From: Lytechinus pictus
Taxonomy: Eukaryota
NCBI RefSeq assembly: GCF_037042905.1
Contig: NC_087251.1
Location: 16,866,001 to 16,930,000, forward strand
Length of the DNA: 64,000 nt
Reading direction: 5' to 3'
Below, piece by piece: positions 1-16,497 of the stretch. Every line of letters begins with the position of its first letter. The stretch's first letter is position 1. Position numbers and translations under genes: made by a program. Below the pieces are notes generated by a model, which saw only the letters and a program-made list of their open reading frames with translations, searched no databases and was not told the DNA's origin.

Positions 1-166
1 ATTTTGAGCCCCCAAAAGAGGGTGGATTTTGTTTGCCATCGGTTACACCACCTCTCCCTGGATCTGCATCAGGGTAAATTCAGTTTTATATATTTCTGAA
101 TACTTATGTATCACGAGAAAGCATATAGTTTTATGTTTTGATATCATGACGTTTGCTTGGTTGCAG

Positions 167-3100
167 ATGAGTTAGGATCTATCCAGCCGCCGAGCAGCCG
201 TAAGATCCCCTGTCAGGTATGTGGTGCGATGTCGTCTGGTCTTCATTTCGGAGTATTCACTTGCGAAGGATGCAAGGTAATCATTTACTGCAAAATATAG
301 GGCCTATCCTATAAATTGTTTCTATCATATATATCATTTTCATCTTTATTATTCTTTGCGCATGTTTCATAATCATTATTGATTTTTAAATCCCCATTGA
401 ATATCAAAATGTCACTTGCCTTATCTTTCTCTCGCTCCTGTCAACATTCCCCTATCACACGGCGTTTAGTTGGCTGCGTGCTTTTCTTTACCGGTAATTA
501 TGAACGTAAACCTATCATCCTGTATTTCTTTATAATTTCTACATAATCATTCTTTTTTTAATATACTACCCATCATACGGCGTTTATTTTGCTGCTATTC
601 TTGAATTATGTACGTTAGCTAATCATCCAATACTTCTTTATCATTTTTATATAATCATTGTTCTTTTTAAATATATTAACCTTGCCTGTATATCAGTTCT
701 CATTATCCTTTATTATTGCACTCAGATTAATTAGATCTATTGAATATTCATTTTTCGGTAGCCACATCTCTAGTAGCTACATCTTTGACTAAAATTTGGT
801 ATCTAAATTACATCATGACTGTTAAAGTTTTCCTCCTCTTGCGACATCATCTTTTCTCTATTCTGAAATTATTTGTTGATTAGATTATCAAGGTTGTGAG
901 GCATAATGGACAGGCGTTCGAAGAAAGGAACCCACCGTTGATCGCACGCATTAGAACAAACGAAATATCATGTAATTTTAATGAACGATAAACACAAGCA
1001 ATTATCCCCTCGATGCATTTCAAATTGCTCACTGCATAACTTTAATACAAACCTGTAAATATTTAATGAATAAGTTTTAGCATCATTGCTCCTCCATTAA
1101 AATCGAACAGATTGACATATCATAGTTCCTGATAGTTCTATATAGGGTAAAGTACAGGGAAAATGTAAAAGTATCTTGGTTTTTTTTAATAGCTCACTTT
1201 TAGATGGCGCATATGGGCTATTCCACGGTTACCCACGTTACATTTGGAGACACCTTGATTCATACTTGGAGCTGTAACTCCATTATTATTGATAGGAACT
1301 AAACATCTCTTTATCACAAGAAAGTACGCAGTCTGACTATCCTTTGTATAAAAAAAAACTTGGGAAATTTTATTATGCTCCTGGCAAATCTTTGAAATGT
1401 GTCGGTTACTCATGTTACATGATTTGGACATGCATTAATGAAAAGTCGACATAAGTGAAAAGTGTCCTCATACAAGGCTTTTTATGAAAGTTGATTATAT
1501 CCATTTCAAAGAAGTATATTAGGGAGACAAACTTTGTATATAATTCAAAAAATAAAGAACACATGGTTTTTACTAGGGGTGCAGATAAAGTGGTTACTCG
1601 CGTTACATTTTGTCCATGTATGGTCAACAACACATGTAAATGTCACTGAAAATTCAATAATGTGTGTAAGATTCATGTTTCTGTTTCTGTAATAATATGA
1701 GTAGGATTTTAGACACCAGTTTATGTTTAAAGGTAATATTCTGAATAAGTTTCCTCCTCTCTTTTACTTATTGGTCAGTTGGTCAGTATATTGGTAATGT
1801 ATTCACTAAACTGTACGAGATCTGGCTTGGGCTGTGTAAATAAAAAAAATGTAAAACAAATGCATGCCATTTCTTGCCTCAAGCCCTCAACATCGATTAT
1901 AAAAGAACCAGCAAAAAGTATAAGTAAGGCAAACACAATTAAAATGAACAGTTCAGATGGGCTATACAGTACAAAGACACATTGAGCTCATGTCCACCAA
2001 CCTATGAAATTGCCCATATTATTATTATTATCATCATTTTAATTGTTGTTGTCATTATTATTCTTGTTGTCTGTTATTGCTTACTGTCTAAAAAAAAATC
2101 GAGTGAATACAATCCACTAGAGTATTAAGAGTGGCTTTTACTTGTGTCTAGTTCATTCTATATTAACTCCATATTGAATATATCTTAATTGACCTCACTA
2201 TCAAAGAGAGAGAAAGGCGAGTGAATCCCCCCGTTTTAGAGTATTGTAATTTTATTCATTGTTTTCAAACTGAGCCCCCCCCCCATTGCAAAACGATCCT
2301 GTTTTTAATGGATGTACTAATGTTTTATAATGGTTGTTTGGTTGCTGGTCATCAGTCAGTCAACAAACAAAGTAAATGAATAAATAAGATATTTTTAAAA
2401 AATCAAGTAAATGGATTAATTGATAAAATAATTGATTGAATACATGAAAAAATAGCGAATGAATAAATGAATGAATAAATCTATTGAATAAGAAGGAAAA
2501 TAAGCTTTATAAAATCGGAAATGGGTAAAACTATTTAACGGATATCTTATGTCGCTATAACGTTAAACGACATTTTGTTTTCTTCTCTTCTTTTTATTCG
2601 TCTTTTACTATTTATTTCCCCTTCTGCTTTCCTTCTTCCACTATTATCCCTTTCCCTTTTTACCGACTCAAATCCAGGGGATGGACCCCACACCCTGATA
2701 TAAATTTAAATCATCCCACCATTATCTCTTAGGAGTGCCCTTTGAAGCAGTATTTGACCCTTTTGACCCTATTTTCGCTCTTTTTCTAATATTTCCACCC
2801 TCTTTCCCCTTTTCCCCCTTCCCCCTCTTTTCACATTTTTTGTTGTTGCCAGGGGCACCTATGGATTCCCCATTTCTTAAAACTGAAATGAGACACACCC
2901 TAAGATGATACCGCGATTAATGATCAAGTAATGATGATTTTTTTTTTCAATATAAATTAGAATAGAATAAAATTGAGAACAGTTTAAGAGGGTTTAAATA
3001 GGCTGACCCGCAGTCAAACGTTAATTTCTAATTTCGACATTTCGAGGTACACATATCATTTTATATTGATCTGTCGCATTTATTTTGTCTGTCAAAAGCT

Positions 3101-6100
3101 ATCGGCTATCGGTAAGAATGACTACCGATCTGGTTTAAATTCCAAGTCAGTGTTAAGCAAGGTTTAAACAACAATTCTTCATAAGATTTATATCTCTTTG
3201 TCTTTATGCTTCAGTTTTTATTGCGCGATTAATGTAATGTAATTATTATTGTTGTTAAAGAAAAATAAAATGCAGAAACTTTATCTCACACCGTTAATTG
3301 ACATGACTCTTATAAAGGCCTGCAAAATCTTCGGCAATTCTTTTATCTGCTAGCAGGCTAGGACGGTGACGGGGTGCTGTGTTGGAGAGAGATATATAAA
3401 CTGTATATAGAGAGAGAGGGAGACAGAGACAGAAAGAAAGATGAAAAATTGGAGAGAAGATGAGTGTATGAGAGCTAGAGGGGGAGAAAGAGATTGAATC
3501 ACATTTTTTCACTTCATAGTAAAACTTCCGTCATATGATTTATGATTTGAGTATACGAAGCATTGACGACACTGCTGCATGCATATGAACAAACTGAAAG
3601 TGAGCTAGTCATACTCAAAAGACGTGTTTATATAATTAAATAAGAAACATCGGTATTGTGTGTGGATGAAGGGGGCAATTTTAATTATGAATACAAATAC
3701 AGAACGTGAAGAATTTGGAATGAGCGTGGCTCGCTCAGAGTCGTGTATGTGAGATGCTAAAATGATGATGGAATGACAACAACATGGTACAATTCAACTT
3801 GAGTTAGAAGATGTTTGGTTGTGTTTTGACACTATACATGAATTAATATATATCTAAAAAAATTCAAAAGTGGTTTGTCAGCTCATTGAATGAAAATTGA
3901 AAAAATAAAGTTGTAAATAATAATAATATTCCTGACTGAACAAGAATTTGAGTCCAATTTTGGAGAAAAAAAAAACAGGTTTCACCTTCCTCATTCAGTA
4001 CTTATTAAGGAAAATACCGAATAATCATTTGAAATATACTTTATATAGGAATTATCATTCTTATTCCCTTTTTAATTAAAAATTCATTTTTTTTACAATT
4101 TCCACTGCTTGGTTAGAATATACAGTGGTGCCAAAAGGTTAGTGAACCCCACAGGAAAATGAAAATATTCAAAGTGTTCAAGTTCTGCCATGTTTTATAT
4201 ATTTAATTGTGAAATCAGGCGATAAAATATTACATTAAAGGTTTGTTTCTCTGAGCTCGCTGAATAGTGTAGCGTTGTTGTCTACATCTAACACTCAACA
4301 TAAATGAGTGCATTTTGTGAAGGGGTTCACTAACATTTTAGCACAACTGTAGACTTCACTGACCTTGCAGAGAGTCCGAACCAGATACTGCAAAAAACAG
4401 AACAAAACATACCCCCCCCCAAAAAAAAAAACGCATTCGAAGTCATTTATATGGTTTATTTGATAAAAGGAATATTTTTTTTTTTTTACCATAAATGTGG
4501 TATCACTGGCTAATAAGGAACACTTGATTCCAAAATGGAGATTCCCTTTCGCATTCTTGTTTTAAATCAAAATTTCTCCTATTTCGTCTAAACCTCTCCC
4601 CTTGATCATTTTTCCAAATGCCGCTATCAACAAAGGGAATATTTTCTATATCTATATATTATTTGCTGCTTATATAGATTCATACACAGGCCTATATTTG
4701 GTTAATTCAATTGACTGACAGATGACATAATTTCTTTTATAATGATATCCCTGCCGGCCATAGGAATCGCCGTGTTCACATGGTATTACATCCATAAAAA
4801 TGGGTTACATTGACTCTATAATAATGCAGCATTGAAAGTTAATTCCCTTGTTAGAACAACCCTCCAAATTTAGACATAAAGCTAGACCTGTTAACCCTTC
4901 AAATTATCTGGAAAATTTTGGTAAATAATATACAAATACATTGGTGCCTTTTCAGTGTTTTTACAGAAGGAGCATCCGAGAAGGGGCGAACTACGCATGT
5001 GCGAAGGAACGAAGCTGCGAAATCACCATGGAAACGCGGAATTCTTGTCGATTTTGCCGATTTCAAAAATGTATTGGTCTTGGAATGTCAAAAGAAGGTA
5101 AATACAAATAAAATCATGAATATTCATTCTACTGAAATGAAAACTGTATTTATGTTTAACAATTGTTTTATCAGCAAAAATTACTACATATATAAATAAT
5201 TATTTTAGAAATCGAAGGGATAAGTGAAGTTAGTACCAATTTCATCATCATTATACAAATTGATAACATACATGACATAAGTGTTAATTTATTGTAATTA
5301 TCATATAATTTATTTGTAGGGGCAGATCCAGGAATTTTTGCAAGAAAGGGGGTGACATTTTTGTTCAGAAAAGATTTTGACAAGGAAAAAAAAGAGAAGG
5401 TATTTACTAGCGTATGCACAACATTTTTCACATCACTTTTTTATGACTCTCATGGGGGGAGGGGGGACGGACGGGCTGGATGTACCCCCTCCTGGATCCG
5501 CCACTGACCCAATCCCACCAATCTTTCCATATTCAATACCTCATCACTCTTATACACTACAATACAATTTTAATCAAAAGTAACCGAGTTTGACCAACGG
5601 TAGTATTCCTTGAACATTCGATGTAAAAATTTGTAACCAATATCAAAACATCGACGGTATATCAATGTAGACTATTTCGCCCAACTATTGGCTAAACTTG
5701 ACCAATAAATTATTTCAATGGTTTGCCAACTTTCCAGAAATAAATGCACAACTTATTGCAGTGTAGAAAAGGGTTGGATAGGAGAAATGACGAGGAAACA
5801 GATAGATAACTAGAGATTGGATATTGAATCAAAATTACAATTGTCTTTTGATGTTATGGCTTACAAAGTTACAATGAGTTTTGACAACAAATAATGTGGA
5901 GAGGAGTTAATTACCCGAAATGCCTTTCGTTTTTTATCTTCTTTGTGCAAGGGAGCGATCAAAAGAAACAGTTTAATTCATTTGTTATATTTTCTTCAGA
6001 TAATGCAGGACGTGGTAAATGCGGTAAATAATCTAAGAATCTGAATAATTGATGAAATTATCCATCGCTTGCTCTATTGAAGGTACTCTCCTCAATCAAA

Positions 6101-7341
6101 GACGTATTATAACATTTCAGATAAAAAAATTTGATATGGCTAATTAGACACGCATTTTACCGCCTTGAACTTCCACTGAGGAGCCCGTTGATTTGTATGC
6201 GTACTAATCATGCTAATGAACTATTAAAGACCATTGTCTACACACAAATGCCGGCTATTATCCTCTATTGTACATGTTGTATACAAAACGTTAATCAAGA
6301 ACGTCACGCATTTATCATCAGACTGTCTTGCGGAGACCATTTGTTCTGATTTTAAGCCAAACCATGAAAATCGCGTTAAATTTCTAGGGCTGAAATATTG
6401 ATTGAGCCCTAATAATGATTTCCGGCAGCAATAGGGAAAAAAAATCACAAAAAATATCCATCAAGACAATGTTTCATATCAAAAGAAAATAGAACGACGA
6501 AATTGGAAAGTAATGTTGGAAGCATGTAAAATAATATTGTTCAGCCATATTTTGTAAAAGGCAATGATAAATGTAATAATAATGACAATAATTATATCAA
6601 TAATCTATAGTACTCGCATCTGTCGGGTTTTGTCAAAGCCGAACCGCCTCAGTAACGTATCCACAATCATAAAGGAACCGACGAACAAGTTACGCGAGAC
6701 TAATTATTTATGAATAAGTGTCTCCCCCTTATTTGTTTACTTTTTTATTTACTACCCTTTCTTGTCATATTGATAATTTGTGAGACTCTCACTGCATATT
6801 CATAGGAGCCTTCAACCAACAAGATTTGTTTTCACTTTTTGCTCCCTTATATCCACATCTCCCATTTTCTTTCTTTGTTATTATTTTAGAACCAATTACA
6901 AGAATGCTTTCTAGTACCTTTTTTATATTGTTTTAATTATATGTATACATTTCATACTTTACAACATATTTCTTATGCTTATTTATGAACATTTGTATCA
7001 TATATCATCATCGGGTAAATATACCTATATCATTATTACTGTTATTATTGTTTGTATTGAGTTATTGATGTTTGAAAATGTGAAATGTTGGAACGAATAA
7101 ACCTTGAACCTCGAGTTGGGGGTTACAAATCTCGGTTAAAAAGAAATCATCCTCTATCCTAAACATACCGGAACGTTCTCATGAGTTAACTTAACGGGTT
7201 ATTTCTTTGTTGAAATATGACACCAAACATTGATCTATACTGTCATGTTCAGAATTATAATCATATACAACCATCACAACTACTAATCTATAATAATAGG
7301 CCAGTATAGGCCTCCTACTGCTGCTACTACTTCTACTACTT

Positions 7342-7375
<34 letters not shown>

Positions 7376-7376
7376 A

Positions 7377-7408
<32 letters not shown>

Positions 7409-7409
7409 A

Positions 7410-7444
<35 letters not shown>

Positions 7445-7536
7445 AACTACAACAACAACTACTACTACTACTACTACTACAACTACTACTATTACTACTA
7501 CTACTACCACCACCGCCACCACCACAACTTCTACAG

Positions 7537-7574
<38 letters not shown>

Positions 7575-7596
7575 GTTACTACTACTGCTACTACTG

Positions 7597-7627
<31 letters not shown>

Positions 7628-7685
7628 CACCTCTACAACTACTACTATTACTACTACGATACTACTACTGCTACTGCTACTACTG

Positions 7686-7769
<84 letters not shown>

Positions 7770-7784
7770 CTGCTACTGCTACTG

Positions 7785-7839
<55 letters not shown>

Positions 7840-7966
7840 CACCACCACCACCACCACCACCTCTACAACTAATGATACTACTGCTACTACTGCTACTACT
7901 ACTACCACCACCACCACCACCTCTACAACTACTACTATTACTACTACTATACTACTACTGCTACTG

Positions 7967-8021
<55 letters not shown>

Positions 8022-8074
8022 TACTACTACTGCTACTACTACTACTACCACTACTACTACTACTTCTACTGCTG

Positions 8075-8133
<59 letters not shown>

Positions 8134-8143
8134 GCTACTACTG

Positions 8144-8223
<80 letters not shown>

Positions 8224-8224
8224 G

Positions 8225-8257
<33 letters not shown>

Positions 8258-11200
8258 GTCCTATACACCAACAACTAAAGTACCACCACTAGTAAGATTC
8301 TCCAATTAATATAAATGTGAATATATTATTAGTGTGGTGATAGTGGCGACGGTGATTTCAGTAGTAGAAGCAGGTGGTAGTGGTTGTAGCAGTAGAAGAA
8401 ATTGTATTATTATCTACTATTTATAATACTACTTTTACTACTGCACCATTCCCAACACCACACTGCTGATATATTCATGTTTATATTCATTGGAACATCT
8501 TTATCATTAATAATGCATTGTGTGTGTGTGTGTTTCATTTCATCCCATAGGTATCAAGTTAGGCCGCCGGCCGAAGGTAGAAAATGAGCCTTTGCAACAT
8601 ATGTGCTACACAAACAGAAGAGACATGGGTTCGATACCCATTGTAGCGGGAAGTCCACGGAGTCTGTCATGGTCCCCAACATTCAACTCGCATATGCCTG
8701 GACACCCGGACTACGTCCAGTCCAACTATAAAGACCTGGATATCGATGCCATGTCCAAGTATGGAATCGGTTTACATAGTGAGGGATGCTATAGCCTGAA
8801 ACACGAGACAATGTCCCAGTGCGACCATTGTAACGAACCGTTCCCAAACCAGTATCCATACTCTGGTGGTCATCATGGTCATGACGATATGGCGAGCTAT
8901 GGACCTATGGATGGGATCGTACCAACTTCGAATATGACGTGGAAGATGGAAGCTACGTATAGCGCTACAAGCTGTGTTCAGAACAACTACTCCATGATGA
9001 CGCGTTCTCCGGGCACGACCACGCCCATCAATTCAACACAAGGGGATGCTTGGCAAGTATCCCAGCAAAGTCCCTCGACCATAAGTGAGGTGTCATCCGA
9101 TGACCAGTGGGACAACGGAGTCAGACCACATTCAGGAACGGCACCGGTGAGCTTGACAATCCCTGAGGTGCAAGCAGGAGCTGTAGCTGCTTTGGCATAT
9201 GCCAACCTTTATAGAGACAAGACGGTAGATCAATCCGAAGACCACAACCAGATGATATCCACAGCTGATAGAGTAGGTGATTCAAACCCTGCGGATATCG
9301 GGCATTCAAAAAGCTATACGGAATTGGTTCCTCGAAGGACAGCTTCTTGTGAGGACAACTATGAATCGGAGTGGCATAGTCAGCGACTAGACCTTCCTCC
9401 AAAATGCCAAGCAGAAAATATAGCCATTAACCATCTTGCGTCATGTAATAATGAACGATCAGATCTTAAAGATCAAAATATTGTTTCTTCTAGAATACAC
9501 ACATCCCGGGAAGAACCTCGTAAACGTGGATTCGCAATGACTCTCCTACCTAGTACCTACATGAAGAGAAAGAAGCATTGGTCAGATGATGAACAATCGG
9601 CAGGTGATGATGATGACGATGATGATGCTGATGAAAATTACGATCATGATGACGACGGAGAAGGAAGCTATGATGAAGAAACAGGAGAAATACAACACGA
9701 TTCTGATAAAAGCAGATTATCGGCAGAGCTCGTTGAGAGATTGATAGGTGCGTTTGTAGATGTGACAAAGAACATGCAACAACTGTGGCAGTACCATCTT
9801 CGCAGCACCTCTTTGGTAAGTCTCTTGGCTTACTGTCACTTAGTTGTTACATCAACTTGACATTGCTATGGCTAGCGTGTGGAAAGGTTGATGGCTAAAC
9901 TAACCGTATTTCAATGATTGAAGGGGAATCGCAAAAAAACTACTGTACTATTGCTATTGCCAAGTATATCCAAACAAGAACAATTTTCTCGCCAATCTTT
10001 CGAATGGTAAACTCTAATAAGATATGGGTTTTCATCTTCTCCTTCAATTACAGGGGATGCAAGCACGTGATAGAGAACGGGGGGGGGGGGGGTCATAGCA
10101 AATTATCCAAGCAAAAAAACTGTTACGGATCAAACTATTCATGCTAACGGGCAATGCATTTTGGCCTTTACACTTTGCATTTGGGGTACTGCAGCGGTAC
10201 TTCTTATTTTGTAGTAGAGGATGTGGGTTTTAATACAAGAAAGATGTATCTATAGTTTATACCATTGCACCAATGACATTTATTATCCCTATAAGATCAT
10301 AATTTCGAATTCGGTGTTATGCGACGCTATTATTGCGCCAACCCTATAACACCAAACGTTCAACACCGATTTTGAAATGACACGATAAGTGTTCAGTTGC
10401 GTGTAGTTTTTTTTTTATTCAAATCGGCATATTTACTCTCCATTACCCTCTCTTATCTTTTATTTATAGGCCTATTATCACTTAGCCCCATTTTTACTTG
10501 ACCCACTGCGATATCGCCTGGCCACCGCTCATTTTGACGCTTGCTTTATGCATAGAGCTATGCTTTATGTGATAATTTTCAATTACCTGTACGATTTTTG
10601 CACGAAAATTTCATCCTTCCTGAATCATGTAAATATCATTAATATCATGGTCCATTCTTTCGAGCTACTAATTGCAGCAATTGAAAAGGCATTTGGTGTT
10701 ATAGTCCTGTGGATTGTCCCGGTGAATTATTCATGCATCCCCAAATAGTATGATTATAATTATTATTTCCTTTTGAGTCGATTATTTTCGTCATGTTCAC
10801 TTTTATATATTCTGAACATTTTAGATTGAAGACAAACTATGTAACAAGGACATGGATACCTTTGTTCAAGAAAAGAGAGACGAAATCCAGAAGATAATTA
10901 CTGGCTATTCCTATAAAGTTTATGGTAAGTACATTATAAAATTATAGCTTTTATATATAAACTTTACACGAAAGAAATGACTGTACTTAAAAAGGATTAT
11001 CAATGGTAAACAACATCCGATAAATTAATATGGTAAGATATATTAAATAGGAACAGAGGGAAGACCTATACTGGGAAAAGGTGCGTCTTTGCAGGGGAAT
11101 TTAATTTCGGGGCGAAACGATGAAAAACTGAATTAATATTTCGGGAGCAAAATTGATATGACCCCCTTTGTGTTTCTCACAAGCCGACATTACGCAATAT

Positions 11201-12265
11201 GAAGTTCTTTGGTCTGTCTGACGCGAAATTTCTGTAGTTGGCCTTCGGAAAAATCTAATTTCGGTAAATTTTTCTGTACTTTTAAATTTATTTTCAAAGG
11301 TAATTTACCTATATCATACTACAACGAGAGAGCATTCCATGTGATATCACGCCTATGCTTGCTACGTGATACCAAACATGAAGAAAATGAGGAGAAATAC
11401 AAGGCTAGAGCAACGCAGAAAGCTGCCGTCCTCTGCGCTCTTTCTATCGTGCCGTCAGGTAGGTTCAAATAACAATCAATTTATCAATTAAAAAACAGTA
11501 ATATTAGTTTTTCATTCATCTGTCTTTGTATCAATCAATGTTTTTATTGTTTATACCTACATCCTAAATGATATTGAAATATTCATCTACTGATCTGCAT
11601 AATTCATTGTTTACATGATTTATTTATTCATTTATTTGTTCACAATTTATTTCAACCTGTAAGCGCTATACCCAGAACACATAGAATTATATTTTACATA
11701 ATGTGGGCCTAACACCAATGACATGAAACTGATGTGAAATGAAGTCGAGGAATAGTTAGAAAAAAATAAACTAATCCTATTTTTGTAAACAAAAAAATAT
11801 TTACATTGAATCCCCAGACCCACATTTGTGCCAAAATTATGGTTTTACATGTTTCATTTTACAGGGGGCGCTGTATCACATCAGCTTTCATCGAGACAAA
11901 AACATTTATACACCGCTCTATTAAACTCTCTCAAAGGTAGGTCATTCAGTGTTATGTTCCGTTAAGCACATTATTATGGGGGAATTCCCATCTTGATTTC
12001 AATCTTCTTGTTCTTCATAATATATTCTCCCTAGTTTTTACTTCCTATTCCTTTTCACCCTTATCCATCCCCCGATTCTTTCTTTTTATCTTGTTTTCTT
12101 TTCATCTATATTTTTCTTTTTCTAAATTTTATTTTATCGCTCCTTCACCTCCCCCATCTTTCCCATTCTTTCTCATTTTTCTTATTCTTTCTATCTGCAT
12201 TAAGGTAAAGAATTTATTCGTTTATTTTTTTGACAGGAAAGCAAAATGGAAACGATGCTATATGA
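167..12265 (+). CDS. Nuclear hormone receptor (NR1-like C4 zinc-finger DBD, long hinge, degenerate/truncated LBD); 5' end lies upstream of the window
   Basis: Exons with AG/GT boundaries and consistent phases: 167-276 ([36 protein letters not shown]), 4956-5097 ([47 protein letters not shown]), 8551-9815 (GIKLGRRPK...[34 protein letters not shown]), 10825-10924 ([33 protein letters not shown]), 11865-11936 ([24 protein letters not shown]), 12237-12265 (GKQNGNDAI*). They join into one open frame of about 572 codons. The two DBD exons are unambiguous; the last three exons are less certain. Confidence 0.88.
4123..4349. mobile_element. Tc1/mariner-type MITE
   Basis: TIRs CAGTGGTGCCAAAAGGTTAGTGAACCCC / GGGGTTCACTAACATTTTAGCACAACTG, with TA on both flanks. 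Confidence 0.8.
5317..5506. mobile_element. hAT-like MITE
   Basis: Imperfect TIRs TAGGGGCAGATCCAGG / CCTGGATCCGCCACTG with subterminal G/C runs, similar to the other hAT-like elements in the window. No clean TSD. Confidence 0.6.
7315..8257. repeat. Long (CTA)n trinucleotide microsatellite with CCA/CTG/CAA variants
   Basis: About 940 bp of ACT/CTA repeats in the nuclear-receptor intron between 5097 and 8551. It generates the poly-V, poly-S, poly-Y and poly-L ORFs in the track. Confidence 0.98.
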
Positions 12266-13303
12266 ACTGAATCCACAGCACTCACGTGAAGACGAATTGA
12301 TAAGCACCGTATCAAGGAATAGGACCATCCACCTCCAATGGGTCAAAGAGAGATTTCCTCACCCCATTTACCCGCTTGTATTTATCTGGAAAAGCTTCTA
12401 TAATTGTGATCATTTATTATTTTTGGGAAGGTATGAAATTGTATGAAATGCAATGCACTTGGCATATTCAAACACGCAGAAAATTAAGTTCTATGATCAT
12501 GTATGCCAGAACTAAAGTTTGTAAATATACAGTTTTTACTCTTGAAAGTGTCCCCCCCCCCCCCCTTTTGAAAGTGAGGACTTTTTTTGCTTGTCAAATT
12601 TTCCGCGGACGAGATGACCTTCAATTTTAGGTAAAAACACAATTATTGACTCGATGTGGAATCTAATGAATATCAATTTGTCCTTTATTTTCTTTGGAAA
12701 ACGATTTAAGTTTTGGAACCGAATACCCAGGTTTCACTACAAGCGCGCACTGAGCTCGAGTAGCCTGCCTGAGACTGAGTTAGATCATGGACCTAGGTCT
12801 GACGTCGCGTCCATGGTAACTTAGATCTAGACCTACGCCTGTTCGCGCTATAGCGCTAGACTACGAATTTAGCGTCTGTTATTGATCGAAGCCAAAGCCA
12901 AAGAGGGGAAAGAAAAGTCAACAAACTGCCGTATTCTTGTCATATTCCATGCCATTTGGTAATTGTGAATGTTGCTGACGGTTACTGATATTTCACAGAT
13001 GGAACTTTACGTGAAATATTCAAATATTTTACAACGATGTTGTTGGCATTATTTACTTCGGTCCCACGTGTGTCATTTGGTGTAATAGATCTATAGATAG
13101 ATCTACTACTTTACTAGAGATTCGTGCATTCATGGTACGTAAATCGCTCGACGCAAAAGAAACGCTGACTTGGCCTGTGTGGTAAACTTATGCCTAAAGG
13201 ATTTGGATGTGGATAGGAGAGAGTACAGACCGGCTACATGTTGTATGTACAGCAAACAACATGCTCTGTGATTTATAACGCTATCATCACTCCAGACTGA
13301 TTC

Positions 13304-14191
13304 ATGCAGATTCAACAGAAGAAACGGCTGTCAAACATTCGGAGCAGTCGTCATAAGAATAACCCAGTACTTGATAAAAAGTGTGAAAGAAGCACATTGC
13401 AGTTAAAAATTGCTAAGATATTTAACTATGTTGGAGTTGTATTCATTCTGTTGTTACTCTTTGTATCATCGACTACCGTTACTTTTTTTACCATCCCTGA
13501 AGTAGTGGAAAAACTTGGTTTCATTGCATGGAAGCACCTGATGTTTACCACATTTGCCTTGGGATCTACCTTTGCAAATTTTCTACTGGCTGTATTTACA
13601 AACACGTCAATACCAAGCAATTATGAGTTAAGAGGAGGGACTAAGACTTCACTGCCAATCCGTGCCCATTATTGTAGTTTGTGTAAATCTGCAATTCTGA
13701 AACATGATCATCACTGCTATGTGCTTGGAAAGTGCATTGGGTATCATAATCAGAAGTATTTCATCTGGTTTTGCTGGTACTCGATGGTGACGGCTTTCTA
13801 CTCTTTGTTCCTGACGGCCTTGTACCTGAGTTTAGCCCATTCGGTGGAGTTCCCTGGTGCCTGGACCTACTTTCTCCTTCTACCCAGGGCTGTGGTAGGC
13901 TGGTTTTCTGGCCATACTGATGTAATGGAGCTTGCATTTACTCTGCTACTCTACATCCAATTGGTCGGTGGCTTTGTAGCTGCTGGGTTCTTTGTATGGC
14001 AGATTTTCTTGGTAATAACAGGGTTGACAACACATGAGGCCCTCTATGGAGAGAAGTTTAGACTGAAACGCCAGGCAGGAATGTACGCTAAATGGACTGA
14101 AGTCTTTGGAAAATACTGGTTTATTGGAATGGTTGTACCATTGCCATTCCCTCAATGTGGTAATGGGTTGTATGAAAAACTGGAGAATTGA
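13304..14191 (+). CDS. ZDHHC22: DHHC palmitoyltransferase, ZDHHC22-like, single coding exon
   Basis: 295-aa ORF with two N-terminal TM segments, the Cys-rich domain PIRAHYCSLCKSAILKHDHHCYVLGKCIGYHNQKYF, two further TM segments and a TTxE motif (GLTTHE). The HDHHC context and the missing first CxxC resemble ZDHHC22; orthology is by recognition, not by search. Confidence 0.9.
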   Translation: MQIQQKKRLSNIRSSRHKNNPVLDKKCERSTLQLKIAKIFNYVGVVFILLLLFVSSTTVTFFTIPEVVEKLGFIAWKHLMFTTFALGSTFANFLLAVFTNTSIPSNYELRGGTKTSLPIRAHYCSLCKSAILKHDHHCYVLGKCIGYHNQKYFIWFCWYSMVTAFYSLFLTALYLSLAHSVEFPGAWTYFLLLPRAVVGWFSGHTDVMELAFTLLLYIQLVGGFVAAGFFVWQIFLVITGLTTHEALYGEKFRLKRQAGMYAKWTEVFGKYWFIGMVVPLPFPQCGNGLYEKLEN

Positions 14192-14975
14192 GAATCTATG
14201 TTTATGCATGTAATATTTTGAGTTTGGATTGATTTTGCTAACCTTTTTTTTGTTTTGTCTACTGGGGAAGTCCTCATGATGAGTTCATTGGGATTAAAAC
14301 TGTAAAAAAAAATTAATCAGCAATTAAGGTTTGGTGAAATTCTTTCAGAGGATAATAACATCATGCATTAGAAGTTTGTAGCATTAAGTGAGAGTTGCTC
14401 TCCCATTAAGTTGTCATTTTCAAATTGGTCACAATGACATTAATAAGTGTTTTGCATACATGTAGTAGTGTTAATGAAATTTTGCAGGGTTTAGCAGGGC
14501 TAAGATTTTAATTTCTGTGTTAACTTTGGATTAATTCTACTTTTCTTACATGTACTTGGTATTCAGTGGATAATCTACACATGCTATAAAATATCTAATC
14601 ACTAGCCTTGAGTTTTGGTTTTCATAGATGTTGGATATTTTCTTTGTTAATACAAGTGAAAACTGAAAGTGTGGTAGATCAATTCTAACAATACTGCATT
14701 TCAGGATGGTGTCCCTATATCTAAGTTCTTTTTCAAAACATTTTATAAATAATTCCTTTTTCAAATATAAAACATAATATGCAAAAATATCCCTGCTAAC
14801 CCAAAGGTATTCCAGTGGTCTAAAGGACCTTAGTTCCAGCTTTTTTACTGTCCATCATTTACAAACAAAATATATCATAATTTTATAGACTTTTGGAGCA
14901 GATACATAAAATCTTTATTTGAATGATTGTAATTCATCATTGGAAAGAATCTCAGAAACATTGATTCTAATGTGA

Positions 14976-16497
14976 ATTGATTCTAATGTGTATACAAGGT
15001 AGTCTGTGGAATTGGATAAAGTCGTTTGTATCTAATCGTTACCAGGTTGTGCAATACCGTGGTTCTTGCTCAGATCCTGCAATTGTTTCTTCTGGTATAC
15101 CCCAAGGAAGTGTCCTGGGTCCGAGATTGTTTAATATGTTTATCAATGATCTAGTAAGAGTTGTCCAATCACATTGCCTGCTTTTTGCAGATGACACATT
15201 GATATATAGATTGATTAGAGACCCAGTTGAGACCAGATTCCTTCAGGAGGATCTAGATAGGGTTGTATCATGGTGTAGTCTTAACAAGATGCAGTTGAAT
15301 GCCAGTAAAACCAAAGCTATGAGAATTGCTCCTCGTAAAAAGAATGTTGGTAACACTAGTTACATGATAGATGATGAGGTAATTGAACAGGTCAGTTGTA
15401 TCAAGTACTTAGGGGTATTTCTCAATTCCCAGTTGAATTGGGATGACCATGTTAATCATGTTGTTTCAAGGTGTAACCGTATGCTCGGGCTCCTAACCCG
15501 TATGTCGGCTGGCCTCTCTTCACGAGCGCTTCTGACATTATACAAGTCACTTGTGTTGCCCATCCTTGATTACGGAGTGCCAGCTTGGATGGTCTATACT
15601 CAGAATCATATTGATATGCTTGAGCACATTCAGAGAAGGGCAACACGAATGATTCTCAGACAGCGACGTCAAGAGATGCCATATGACCAACGTTTGCGAT
15701 TATTAAAATGGCATACGCTAAAATCTCAGAGGATTTTCTTAATGGTGTCCTTTTTTGTTAAATTGTTGTATGGTTTGATCGTTTGCGAAGTCGCAAGGGA
15801 TAATATTGTAATACGTGTAAGACGTTCTGACGTAGATGTTAGATTTGTACACCTAAAGGCAAGAACAGAGAGACTCCATCAGACTGCAATTCACAGATAT
15901 CCCATAGTATGGGAAGCCCTGCCCTCTGAAAGCAGAGTTGAAATAGTCTCAGGAAACATTAATCATGTTCTGTGTGTCCTCAAGAGGGATATCCTTAAGT
16001 TCCAGTTAGATTAAAATATAAATTAGAATATGTCTAAAGATCCACAACACATTATCAAGTTTCTTTTTAATTTTCTAAACTGTGTCCAATTTATTATTTC
16101 TTTATATCTTTTATCTCATTCGTTGTAAAGTTATTTATTTCCACTGTTGGCTCAATTATATTTAACCGAATATTTGTTCCTCCTGTTTTCTTTGGTTAAG
16201 TCAAACATAAGTTGGTTCCCTTTTTTTTTGTGCAACCTACCTGTCTTGTACTATTATGTTATTCTATTTTGTAACTCTATTATGTAATGATCTTTTTTTC
16301 ACCCAATCAGGTGTGGGAGGGAAGGCCTGTGGGCCATGGCCATTAAGTTGACCTATTCCCTACCCAGGCTACCTGGTTGGGTGAGAAAGGGTCTAAAAAT
16401 TATTTGTATTTTTGTATTTTTTCTCAATTTTGCATTGTACATGCTGTTTTGTTTTTGATGAAGTGCCGAATAAAATAATAATAATAATAATAATAAT
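14976..16497 (+). mobile_element. 5'-truncated non-LTR retrotransposon (CR1/L2-group LINE): RT C-terminal part, 3' UTR and (AAT)n tail
   Basis: Open 345-codon frame 14977-16014 with GIPQGSVLGPRLF, FADD, KYLGV, LYKSLVLPILDYG and LEHIQRRATRMI. It is followed by a ~480-bp UTR ending in AATAAA(ATA)n near 16470-16497. Confidence 0.93.

Follow-up and report, generated by a model that had tools for sequence, protein, structure and literature searches.

We examined a gene encoding a nuclear receptor with the unusual P-box CEGCKC on a 64,000-nucleotide stretch of Lytechinus pictus DNA (the window; RefSeq assembly GCF_037042905.1, contig NC_087251.1, positions 16,866,001 to 16,930,000 of the forward strand, with coordinates below counted from its first letter). 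The database label of the matching protein, P0001, identifies the gene as LOC129265451. On balance, we favour the interpretation that it represents a conserved orphan receptor which derives from a receptor with two DNA-binding domains (2DBD receptor, 2DBD-NR), has lost the first of these domains (DBDs) and is predicted to regulate without a ligand. The group to which it belongs is ancient and apparently undescribed. A preliminary description of this DNA had placed the receptor at 211..5097; these coordinates are right for the DBD, but the gene extends to 12265, and its first coding exon is located some 9 kb upstream of the window. Descent from 2DBD-NRs, a reduced ligand domain and a family motif did not feature in that description.

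Seven exons in the window, all on the forward strand, rebuild residues 20-643 of P0001 with every letter identical and the frame open throughout. A coding exon at 167..276, entered in phase 1 from the upstream exon, encodes a short linker and zinc finger 1 (211-276) and ends in CEGCK. The remaining recognition helix (CFYRRS), the D-box and zinc finger 2 are found on the exon at 4956..5097, which is left in phase 1. The P-box is thus divided by a phase-0 GT..AG intron of 4,679 bases (277..4955), and the spliced product reads TCEGCK/CFYRRS (the slash marking the joint), with the TGT codon at 4956..4958 specifying Cys at the third P-box position. The donor AAG/GTAATC after 276 and the acceptor TTTTCAG/TGT before 4956 form the sole GT..AG pair near these exon ends. 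The joint from 276 to 4956, skipping 4,679 bases with GT..AG ends, was present in runs X1 and X2 (one contig in either run), which belong to two studies and carry two organism labels; the RNA status of the data is presumed, no run being recorded as RNA. Four of the five listed runs were compared with bases 1-7200, of which X3 and X4 gave no cover on these exons, and for the 3' exons the junctions are supported by database models, not reads. Finger 1 follows the spacing C-X2-C-X13-C-X2-C and finger 2 the spacing C-X5-C-X9-C-X2-C-X4-C, all nine cysteines being kept, and the domain is a C4 DBD of the nuclear receptor superfamily (Pfam PF00105, E = 3.6e-25). The splice proposed in the preliminary description, with intact zinc ligands, was therefore borne out by the only available GT..AG pair and by contigs from two of the four runs.

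Orthologues were found in sea urchins, starfish, a brittle star, a sea cucumber, a crinoid and three acorn worms using the large exon and two DBD queries (two region searches gave 22 and 20 candidates inside the length limits). Of 178 proteins compared, 28 carry a hinge motif described below; 17 of these include finger 1, and every one of the 17 reads CEGCKCFY and has one DBD only. This reading spans 13 species, five echinoderm classes and three hemichordates. The sea-urchin DBD is identical to that of starfish at 59/66 positions and to those of acorn worms at 48-50/66, compared with 44-58/66 for echinoderm 2DBD-NRB second domains among each other. A profile search of 1.84 billion representatives, whose 50% clustering may hide members, yielded 10,940 hits given without taxa; among the best 150 there was no family member outside recognisable echinoderm or hemichordate sequences. 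Those 150 comprised 138 new proteins, with three motif-bearing, echinoderm-like fragments and no new CEGCKC. Judged by these sequences, the family looks confined to Ambulacraria. Several of its members carry wrong database labels (knirps-like, seven-up-like, ecdysone-induced or uncharacterised).

Since all 17 orthologue proteins with a DBD read CEGCKCFY, the Cys can be explained neither as a mistake nor as a recent peculiarity. The T at 4956 is established by proteins and not by the reads alone: two database models of this gene, P0001 and P0019, and the orthologues of 12 other species give the same reading. The probability that the residue reflects an assembly error, a rare allele or a decaying pseudogene is accordingly negligible: TGT and GGT differ by a single base, and the degenerate ligand domain goes unrecognised by Pfam in the window protein, but the same Cys occurs in the 12 other species, the DBD is identical in three sea urchins, the seven exons are open and the spliced junction appears in two studies. 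A genuine, spliced and fixed P-box is present, and both refutations named in the preliminary description fail: the orthologues do not read CEGCKG, and contigs contain the junction. Instead of the "divergent lineage-specific" receptor suggested there, we found a highly conserved group that predates the echinoderm-hemichordate split, with 43/66 DBD positions invariant.

The 150 non-family proteins provided 258 P-boxes for comparison. CEGCKC is absent from all of these, a third-position Cys occurs in one (CLACRC, in P0078) and 18 carry Tyr for the second Phe. A third-position Cys is also present in locus L014 of the same genome (G000:C16:10580463-10580669), which reads CDGCSC and falls among NR2E genes in the tree. 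We take L014 to be the NHR-239/Hr83 orthologue, from its tree position. According to the available text of PMC3517510, this clade occurs in echinoderms and hemichordates. The Cys of L014 arose independently of that in the family. The second domain of the crinoid 2DBD-NRB (P0043) reads EGCKG-FYRRS, as do rows in the accessible part of supplement 2 of PMC10497141. Given the FY of the crinoid 2DBD-NRB and the CDGCSC of L014, substitution by Tyr recurs and substitution by Cys is rare, and the pair of Cys and Tyr on an E-G-K helix occurs within this family only among the 178 proteins. The third-position Cys highlighted in the preliminary description is thus rare, though not unique, whereas the F-to-Y exchange that it also singled out is not special, being shared with the 18 Tyr-bearing P-boxes, which are mostly from 2DBD-NRs. 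Further non-standard recognition helices were noted in the same genome at L005, L007, L015 and L016 (CDGCRG, CESCKSFFGR, CEGCKSFFLR and CEGCKTFFRR), and the unnamed proteins P0047, P0071, P0086, P0106 and P0143 contain four to six receptor-type DBDs with mostly differing odd P-boxes.

Several lines of evidence connect the family with 2DBD receptors. For three family DBDs, the top ten to twelve non-family DBDs among 55 were all 2DBD second domains. In a 55-row tree, from which 14 near-duplicate rows had been left out, the family grouped with second domains at 84/91 and all 2DBD domains plus the family at 91/75; after 12 further rows, several of them long-branched, were dropped, the resulting 43-row tree gave 64/90 and 97/80, respectively. 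With the C-terminal extension included (56 rows), support was 92/92 for the family plus second domains and 96/90 for the family alone. The DBD therefore falls within the 2DBD clade beside the second domains, with moderate support from few columns. Placements elsewhere were rejected by the approximately unbiased (AU) test, namely with the ROR/HR3 clade (NR1F; p = 0.009), with COUP-TF (NR2F, the database label of the crinoid member; COUP-TF P-box EGCKS; p = 0.005), with an E78-like gene (p = 0.010) and with L007 (p = 0.011). Receptor labels within this genome are our own assignments, those for ROR being based on the extension sequence.

The genomic setting points in the same direction. A 2DBD-NRB gene lies on the same contig, 3.4 Mb away, and the family gene and 2DBD-NRB are inferred to share one contig in three starfish, one of these contigs being a 1.65-Mb scaffold; in Ptychodera, the family gene and two genes of 2DBD-NRA type are on separate contigs. 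Two proteins of Ptychodera flava, P0009 and P0014, are group A type 2DBD receptors with EACKK/EACKR-EGCKG modules and are labelled NR1D2-like and ROR-gamma-like. The term "hemichord" is absent from the available main text of the 2023 2DBD-NR survey (PMC10497141). From the exon before finger 1 onwards, seven introns with phases 1,0,1,0,1,1,1 occupy like places in the family and 2DBD-NRB genes, one of the seven being located by its donor side only. Beyond the DBD, a large coding exon (8551..9815) encodes the C-terminal extension, a long low-confidence hinge and the first helix of a ligand-domain remnant, and includes, five residues past the core DBD end, the G-box KLGRRP (8556..8573), which is invariant in the family.

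Some observations weigh against this derivation. Tree supports were moderate, being based on 66-83 columns, and the AU test made no choice among placements with echinoderm group B (p = 0.34), all of group B (p = 0.23), group A (p = 0.25) or outside both (p = 0.24). The DBD and G-box point to group B and the ligand-domain profile (see below) to group A. Since many receptor genes of this genome have the same DBD introns, the shared introns are supporting evidence only, and KxGR is not diagnostic since it also occurs in ROR. We also considered that the family might be sister to the second domain, a single-DBD survivor which predates the split of 2DBD-NRA and 2DBD-NRB and was lost outside Ambulacraria. 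A pattern scan and two profiles detected no first DBD in 2,717 open frames within 60 kb upstream or in 12 N-termini (best N-terminal E 0.08), as such an origin would predict, and a topology uniting A and B to the exclusion of the family was not rejected (p = 0.24; 0.76 in the 43-row set). This scenario nevertheless requires losses in chordates and all protostomes, with no member outside Ambulacraria among the best 150 hits, and the linkage with 2DBD-NRB in four echinoderms fits local duplication, so that we regard it as improbable. Cys-rich N-termini in the crinoid (P0015, residues 16-60), brittle-star and starfish models were not significant as DBDs; that of P0015 is possibly a gene-model fusion. 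Duplication of a 2DBD receptor followed by loss of its first DBD is the simplest reading and, in our judgement, probably the right one.

The C-terminal part of the protein was less readily recognised. Pfam reported no ligand domain in the window protein and remained below its cut-off in 11/11 family proteins; one weak ligand-domain hit came from the brittle star (E = 4e-4). A C-terminal profile of eight echinoderm members matched the ligand domains of five 2DBD-NRA proteins with a probability of 89% (E = 2e-6, score 46), while 30 shuffles gave scores of at most 20. Against A and B combined, the same profile reached 77%, and against three group B sequences alone 0.5%. AlphaFold models showed six helices with a predicted local distance difference test (pLDDT) score of about 60-89 in the C-terminal part and little else. 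In structure comparisons against 48,161 chains, the top 36 matches of the brittle-star model were all ligand domains (Z up to 9.8, root-mean-square deviation (rmsd) 4.2-4.6, 144-164 residues aligned), and the sea-urchin model also gave ligand domains as its 22 best matches (Z up to 7.9, rmsd 5.2, 128 aligned). The matches stop within helix 10 in the brittle star and just past helix 9 in the sea urchin, in all cases before helix 11, and the crinoid-like fragment P0052 has the same outline. The Foldseek matches listed for the brittle star were likewise all ligand domains. Two observations count against a ligand-domain identity: the Z scores of 9.8 and 7.9 are modest, values of this size being attained by helical bundles through chance, and Foldseek returned nothing at E<=0.001, with best E values of 8e-3 (brittle star) and 0.47 (sea urchin).

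In the gene, the helix 3 region of this remnant is assigned, from the P0001 match and the model, to a coding exon at 10825..10924. The next coding exon (11300..11458) fuses helix 4/5 to helix 8; the sheet and helix 6/7 region is largely absent, about 25-30 residues being gone in the profile alignment. Helix 9 is encoded at 11865..11936, an exon left out of the database model P0019, and the last coding exon (12237..12265) adds nine residues and the stop, without helices 10-12, as in P0001; the preceding intron has the same phase and position in 2DBD-NRB. A second frame of the last exon (12237-12446, 69 open codons), helix-10-like by eye, was rejected: it ranked below most of 82 background frames in the profile comparison, its use would depend on a weak donor, and in the 2DBD-NRB gene this intron is likewise in phase 1. 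The three hemichordate models (331-378 amino acids) end 23-26 residues past the hinge motif and all lack a ligand domain. As modelled, the echinoderm ligand domain is a remnant that ends at or within helix 10 and lacks helices 11-12 with the activation function 2 (AF-2) helix. No complete ligand domain with an AF-2 helix was found.

The only segment outside the DBD kept by all members is the hinge motif, located at 9147..9215 in the window and a candidate cofactor-binding segment. Its pattern, [LI]P[ED]VxxGAxxAxA[YF]AN[LM]YR, was found in the 28 family proteins and in 0/150 others, and it matched no Pfam family. AlphaFold modelled it as a helix (306-322) with low confidence, and an Atlas search with the motif region returned scores of <=0.82 and no lead.

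How might such a receptor read DNA? According to the accessible sections of PMC3908500, Glu at the first and Gly or Ala at the second P-box position are needed for AGGNCA, the third position has subtle effects in TR-beta, and Ala or Val at this place packs onto both the helix and the fourth base pair. The G-box is described in the available text of PMC10497141 as binding the minor groove. In the mechanism we propose, Glu and Gly would retain an AGG(T/N)CA-type half-site, and the G-box would grip an A/T-rich 5' extension, leading to monomer binding like that of ROR and Rev-erb. The Cys, in size between Ala and Val, would lie near a thymine methyl and might tune or loosen the two central bases without creating a wholly new site. 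Without a pocket floor and an AF-2 helix, output would run through the hinge motif. We infer, with somewhat better than even confidence, that the receptor acts as a monomer on an extended AGG(T/N)CA, with the Cys adjusting the central bases and ligand-independent output via the hinge helix. Two points speak against this proposal. In the part of a steroid-receptor scan available to us (PMC11105156), small hydrophobic third-position residues favour the other half-site and the methyls of the steroid element, which hints at a larger shift than assumed. Furthermore, AlphaFold modelled the DBD poorly (pLDDT mostly <60), and the models are thus silent on the Cys side chain.

That the Cys alters DNA specificity, as the preliminary description had suggested, is plausible. 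A stronger version, in which the residue packs on thymine methyls and moves the central bases away from AGGTCA to give a clearly new half-site, appears possible but rather unlikely. The Cys has been invariant (17/17) since before the echinoderm-hemichordate split and CEGCKC occurs in 0/258 P-boxes elsewhere, yet the invariance of one residue is unexceptional because 43/66 DBD positions are invariant. Glu-Gly-Lys is also unaltered, the third position is subtle in TR-beta (PMC3908500, in its accessible part), and no value for an E-G-K-C variant was found in the available text of two scan papers, one of them PMC11105156. The preliminary description had further considered a redox- or metal-sensitive residue. 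Oxidation of a switch on the recognition helix would halt DNA binding and replace ligand input, which would suit an invariant Cys in a receptor without a usable ligand pocket. Redox-sensitive cysteines are known in DNA-binding helices of other factor families. There is, though, no second conserved free Cys or His among the invariant DBD positions, nine oxidisable cysteines are already present in all such domains, and the same Cys in the unrelated L014 fits a tolerated small side chain; a redox or metal switch is thus very improbable. Cys adjusting the central bases of an otherwise conventional half-site remains our preferred assignment.

No description of a CEGCKC receptor P-box or of the group was found in the full-text literature, subscription papers, figures and supplements being beyond the search. 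The gene, LOC105446254 in S. purpuratus, may be listed under a provisional name among the 33 receptors of the Howard-Ashby 2006 sea-urchin survey. The one literature match for CEGCKC was a metallothionein review, and GCKC was absent from the accessible content of five supplements of PMC10497141. A more far-reaching scenario can be offered tentatively, with the odds against it: an undescribed group would have arisen from the rear half of a 2DBD receptor in the echinoderm-hemichordate ancestor, would read its own element via the Cys P-box and would use a 19-residue hinge helix in place of the ligand domain. The latter would have been lost in steps: crinoids, brittle stars, starfish and sea cucumbers would retain it nearly as far as helix 10 and sea urchins as far as helix 9, and acorn worms would have lost it altogether. 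P-boxes almost never change, and a fixed variant therefore offers a natural test of the role of the third position, in a DBD small enough for direct binding assays. The family would be the first single-domain offshoot found of the little-studied 2DBD receptors. It would also be a separate case of a receptor arriving at the loss of its ligand domain, one whose intermediate stages survive today. Its apparent restriction to Ambulacraria and its strong conservation make the factor a candidate for controlling traits of that clade, and the gene can be knocked out in laboratory sea urchins.

Other features were noted in the window and the genome. About 1 kb of trinucleotide repeats lies in the intron downstream of finger 2 (7290-8290). 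The intronic stretches 1200-2010, 4117-4350 and 6790-7100 were covered by contigs to a very great depth, with inverted joints, in each of the four runs; they are likely mobile-element copies. About 1 kb past the receptor stop, a 296-codon open frame on the forward strand (13301-14188) encodes a DHHC palmitoyltransferase domain (Pfam E = 2.4e-23), followed on the same strand by a 347-codon open frame (14971-16011) that resembles, by eye, a reverse transcriptase of a non-long-terminal-repeat (non-LTR) retrotransposon. Three receptor genes are doubled, with identical or near-identical DBD exons (L016/L017 on C8, L028/L042 on C21, and L019/L020 on C1 and C262), and represent either recent duplicates or haplotypes that the assembly contains twice.

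Among known systems, 2DBD-NRB (Lv2DBD-NRB, Spur2DBD-NRB) comes closest. The family DBD is nearest to its second domain (39-42/66 identical), and both share HFGV(F/Y)TCEG in finger 1, an IKLGR extension, seven introns alike in phase and the same contig. Two tandem DBDs are present there and one here, with EACKS-EGCKG as the P-P module (Wu and LoVerde 2023, PMC10497141, in the available text) opposed to a single EGCKC. The 2DBD-NRB G-box is KXGR(P/H) after a five-residue linker; here KLGRRP also follows after five residues, but its fifth letter is R, and ROR likewise has KXGR. In addition, the ligand domain is cut to a remnant without AF-2, and the hinge motif is found in the family only. With NR0A (knirps, knirps-related, eagle), which is the source of one database label for the family, the receptor shares the character of a DBD-led regulator without a working ligand domain, the hemichordate members having none at all; the echinoderm members, in contrast, keep helices 1-9/10, and the DBD sits with 2DBD-NRs in trees built without knirps sequences. 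The knirps P-box is CEGCKSFFGR. NR0 is treated as a bin regardless of origin in the accessible part of PMC10497141. The nematode members of the NHR-239/Hr83 clade (NR2E) have a truncated ligand domain, according to the available text of PMC3517510, and L014 shares the Cys at the same P-box position but within CDGCSC. The best solved-structure match of the family DBD is the ROR-gamma DBD (7xvn, E = 1e-26), and ROR/HR3 (NR1F) and Rev-erb (NR1D) share a G-box that follows a short linker. Helix 12 is missing from Rev-erb as well. Unlike this protein, which is also without helix 11 and the sheet region, ROR/HR3 and Rev-erb combine EGCKG with a complete pocket. By the tests run, the protein is a nuclear receptor, but not a member of the 2DBD-NR, ROR or COUP-TF groups.

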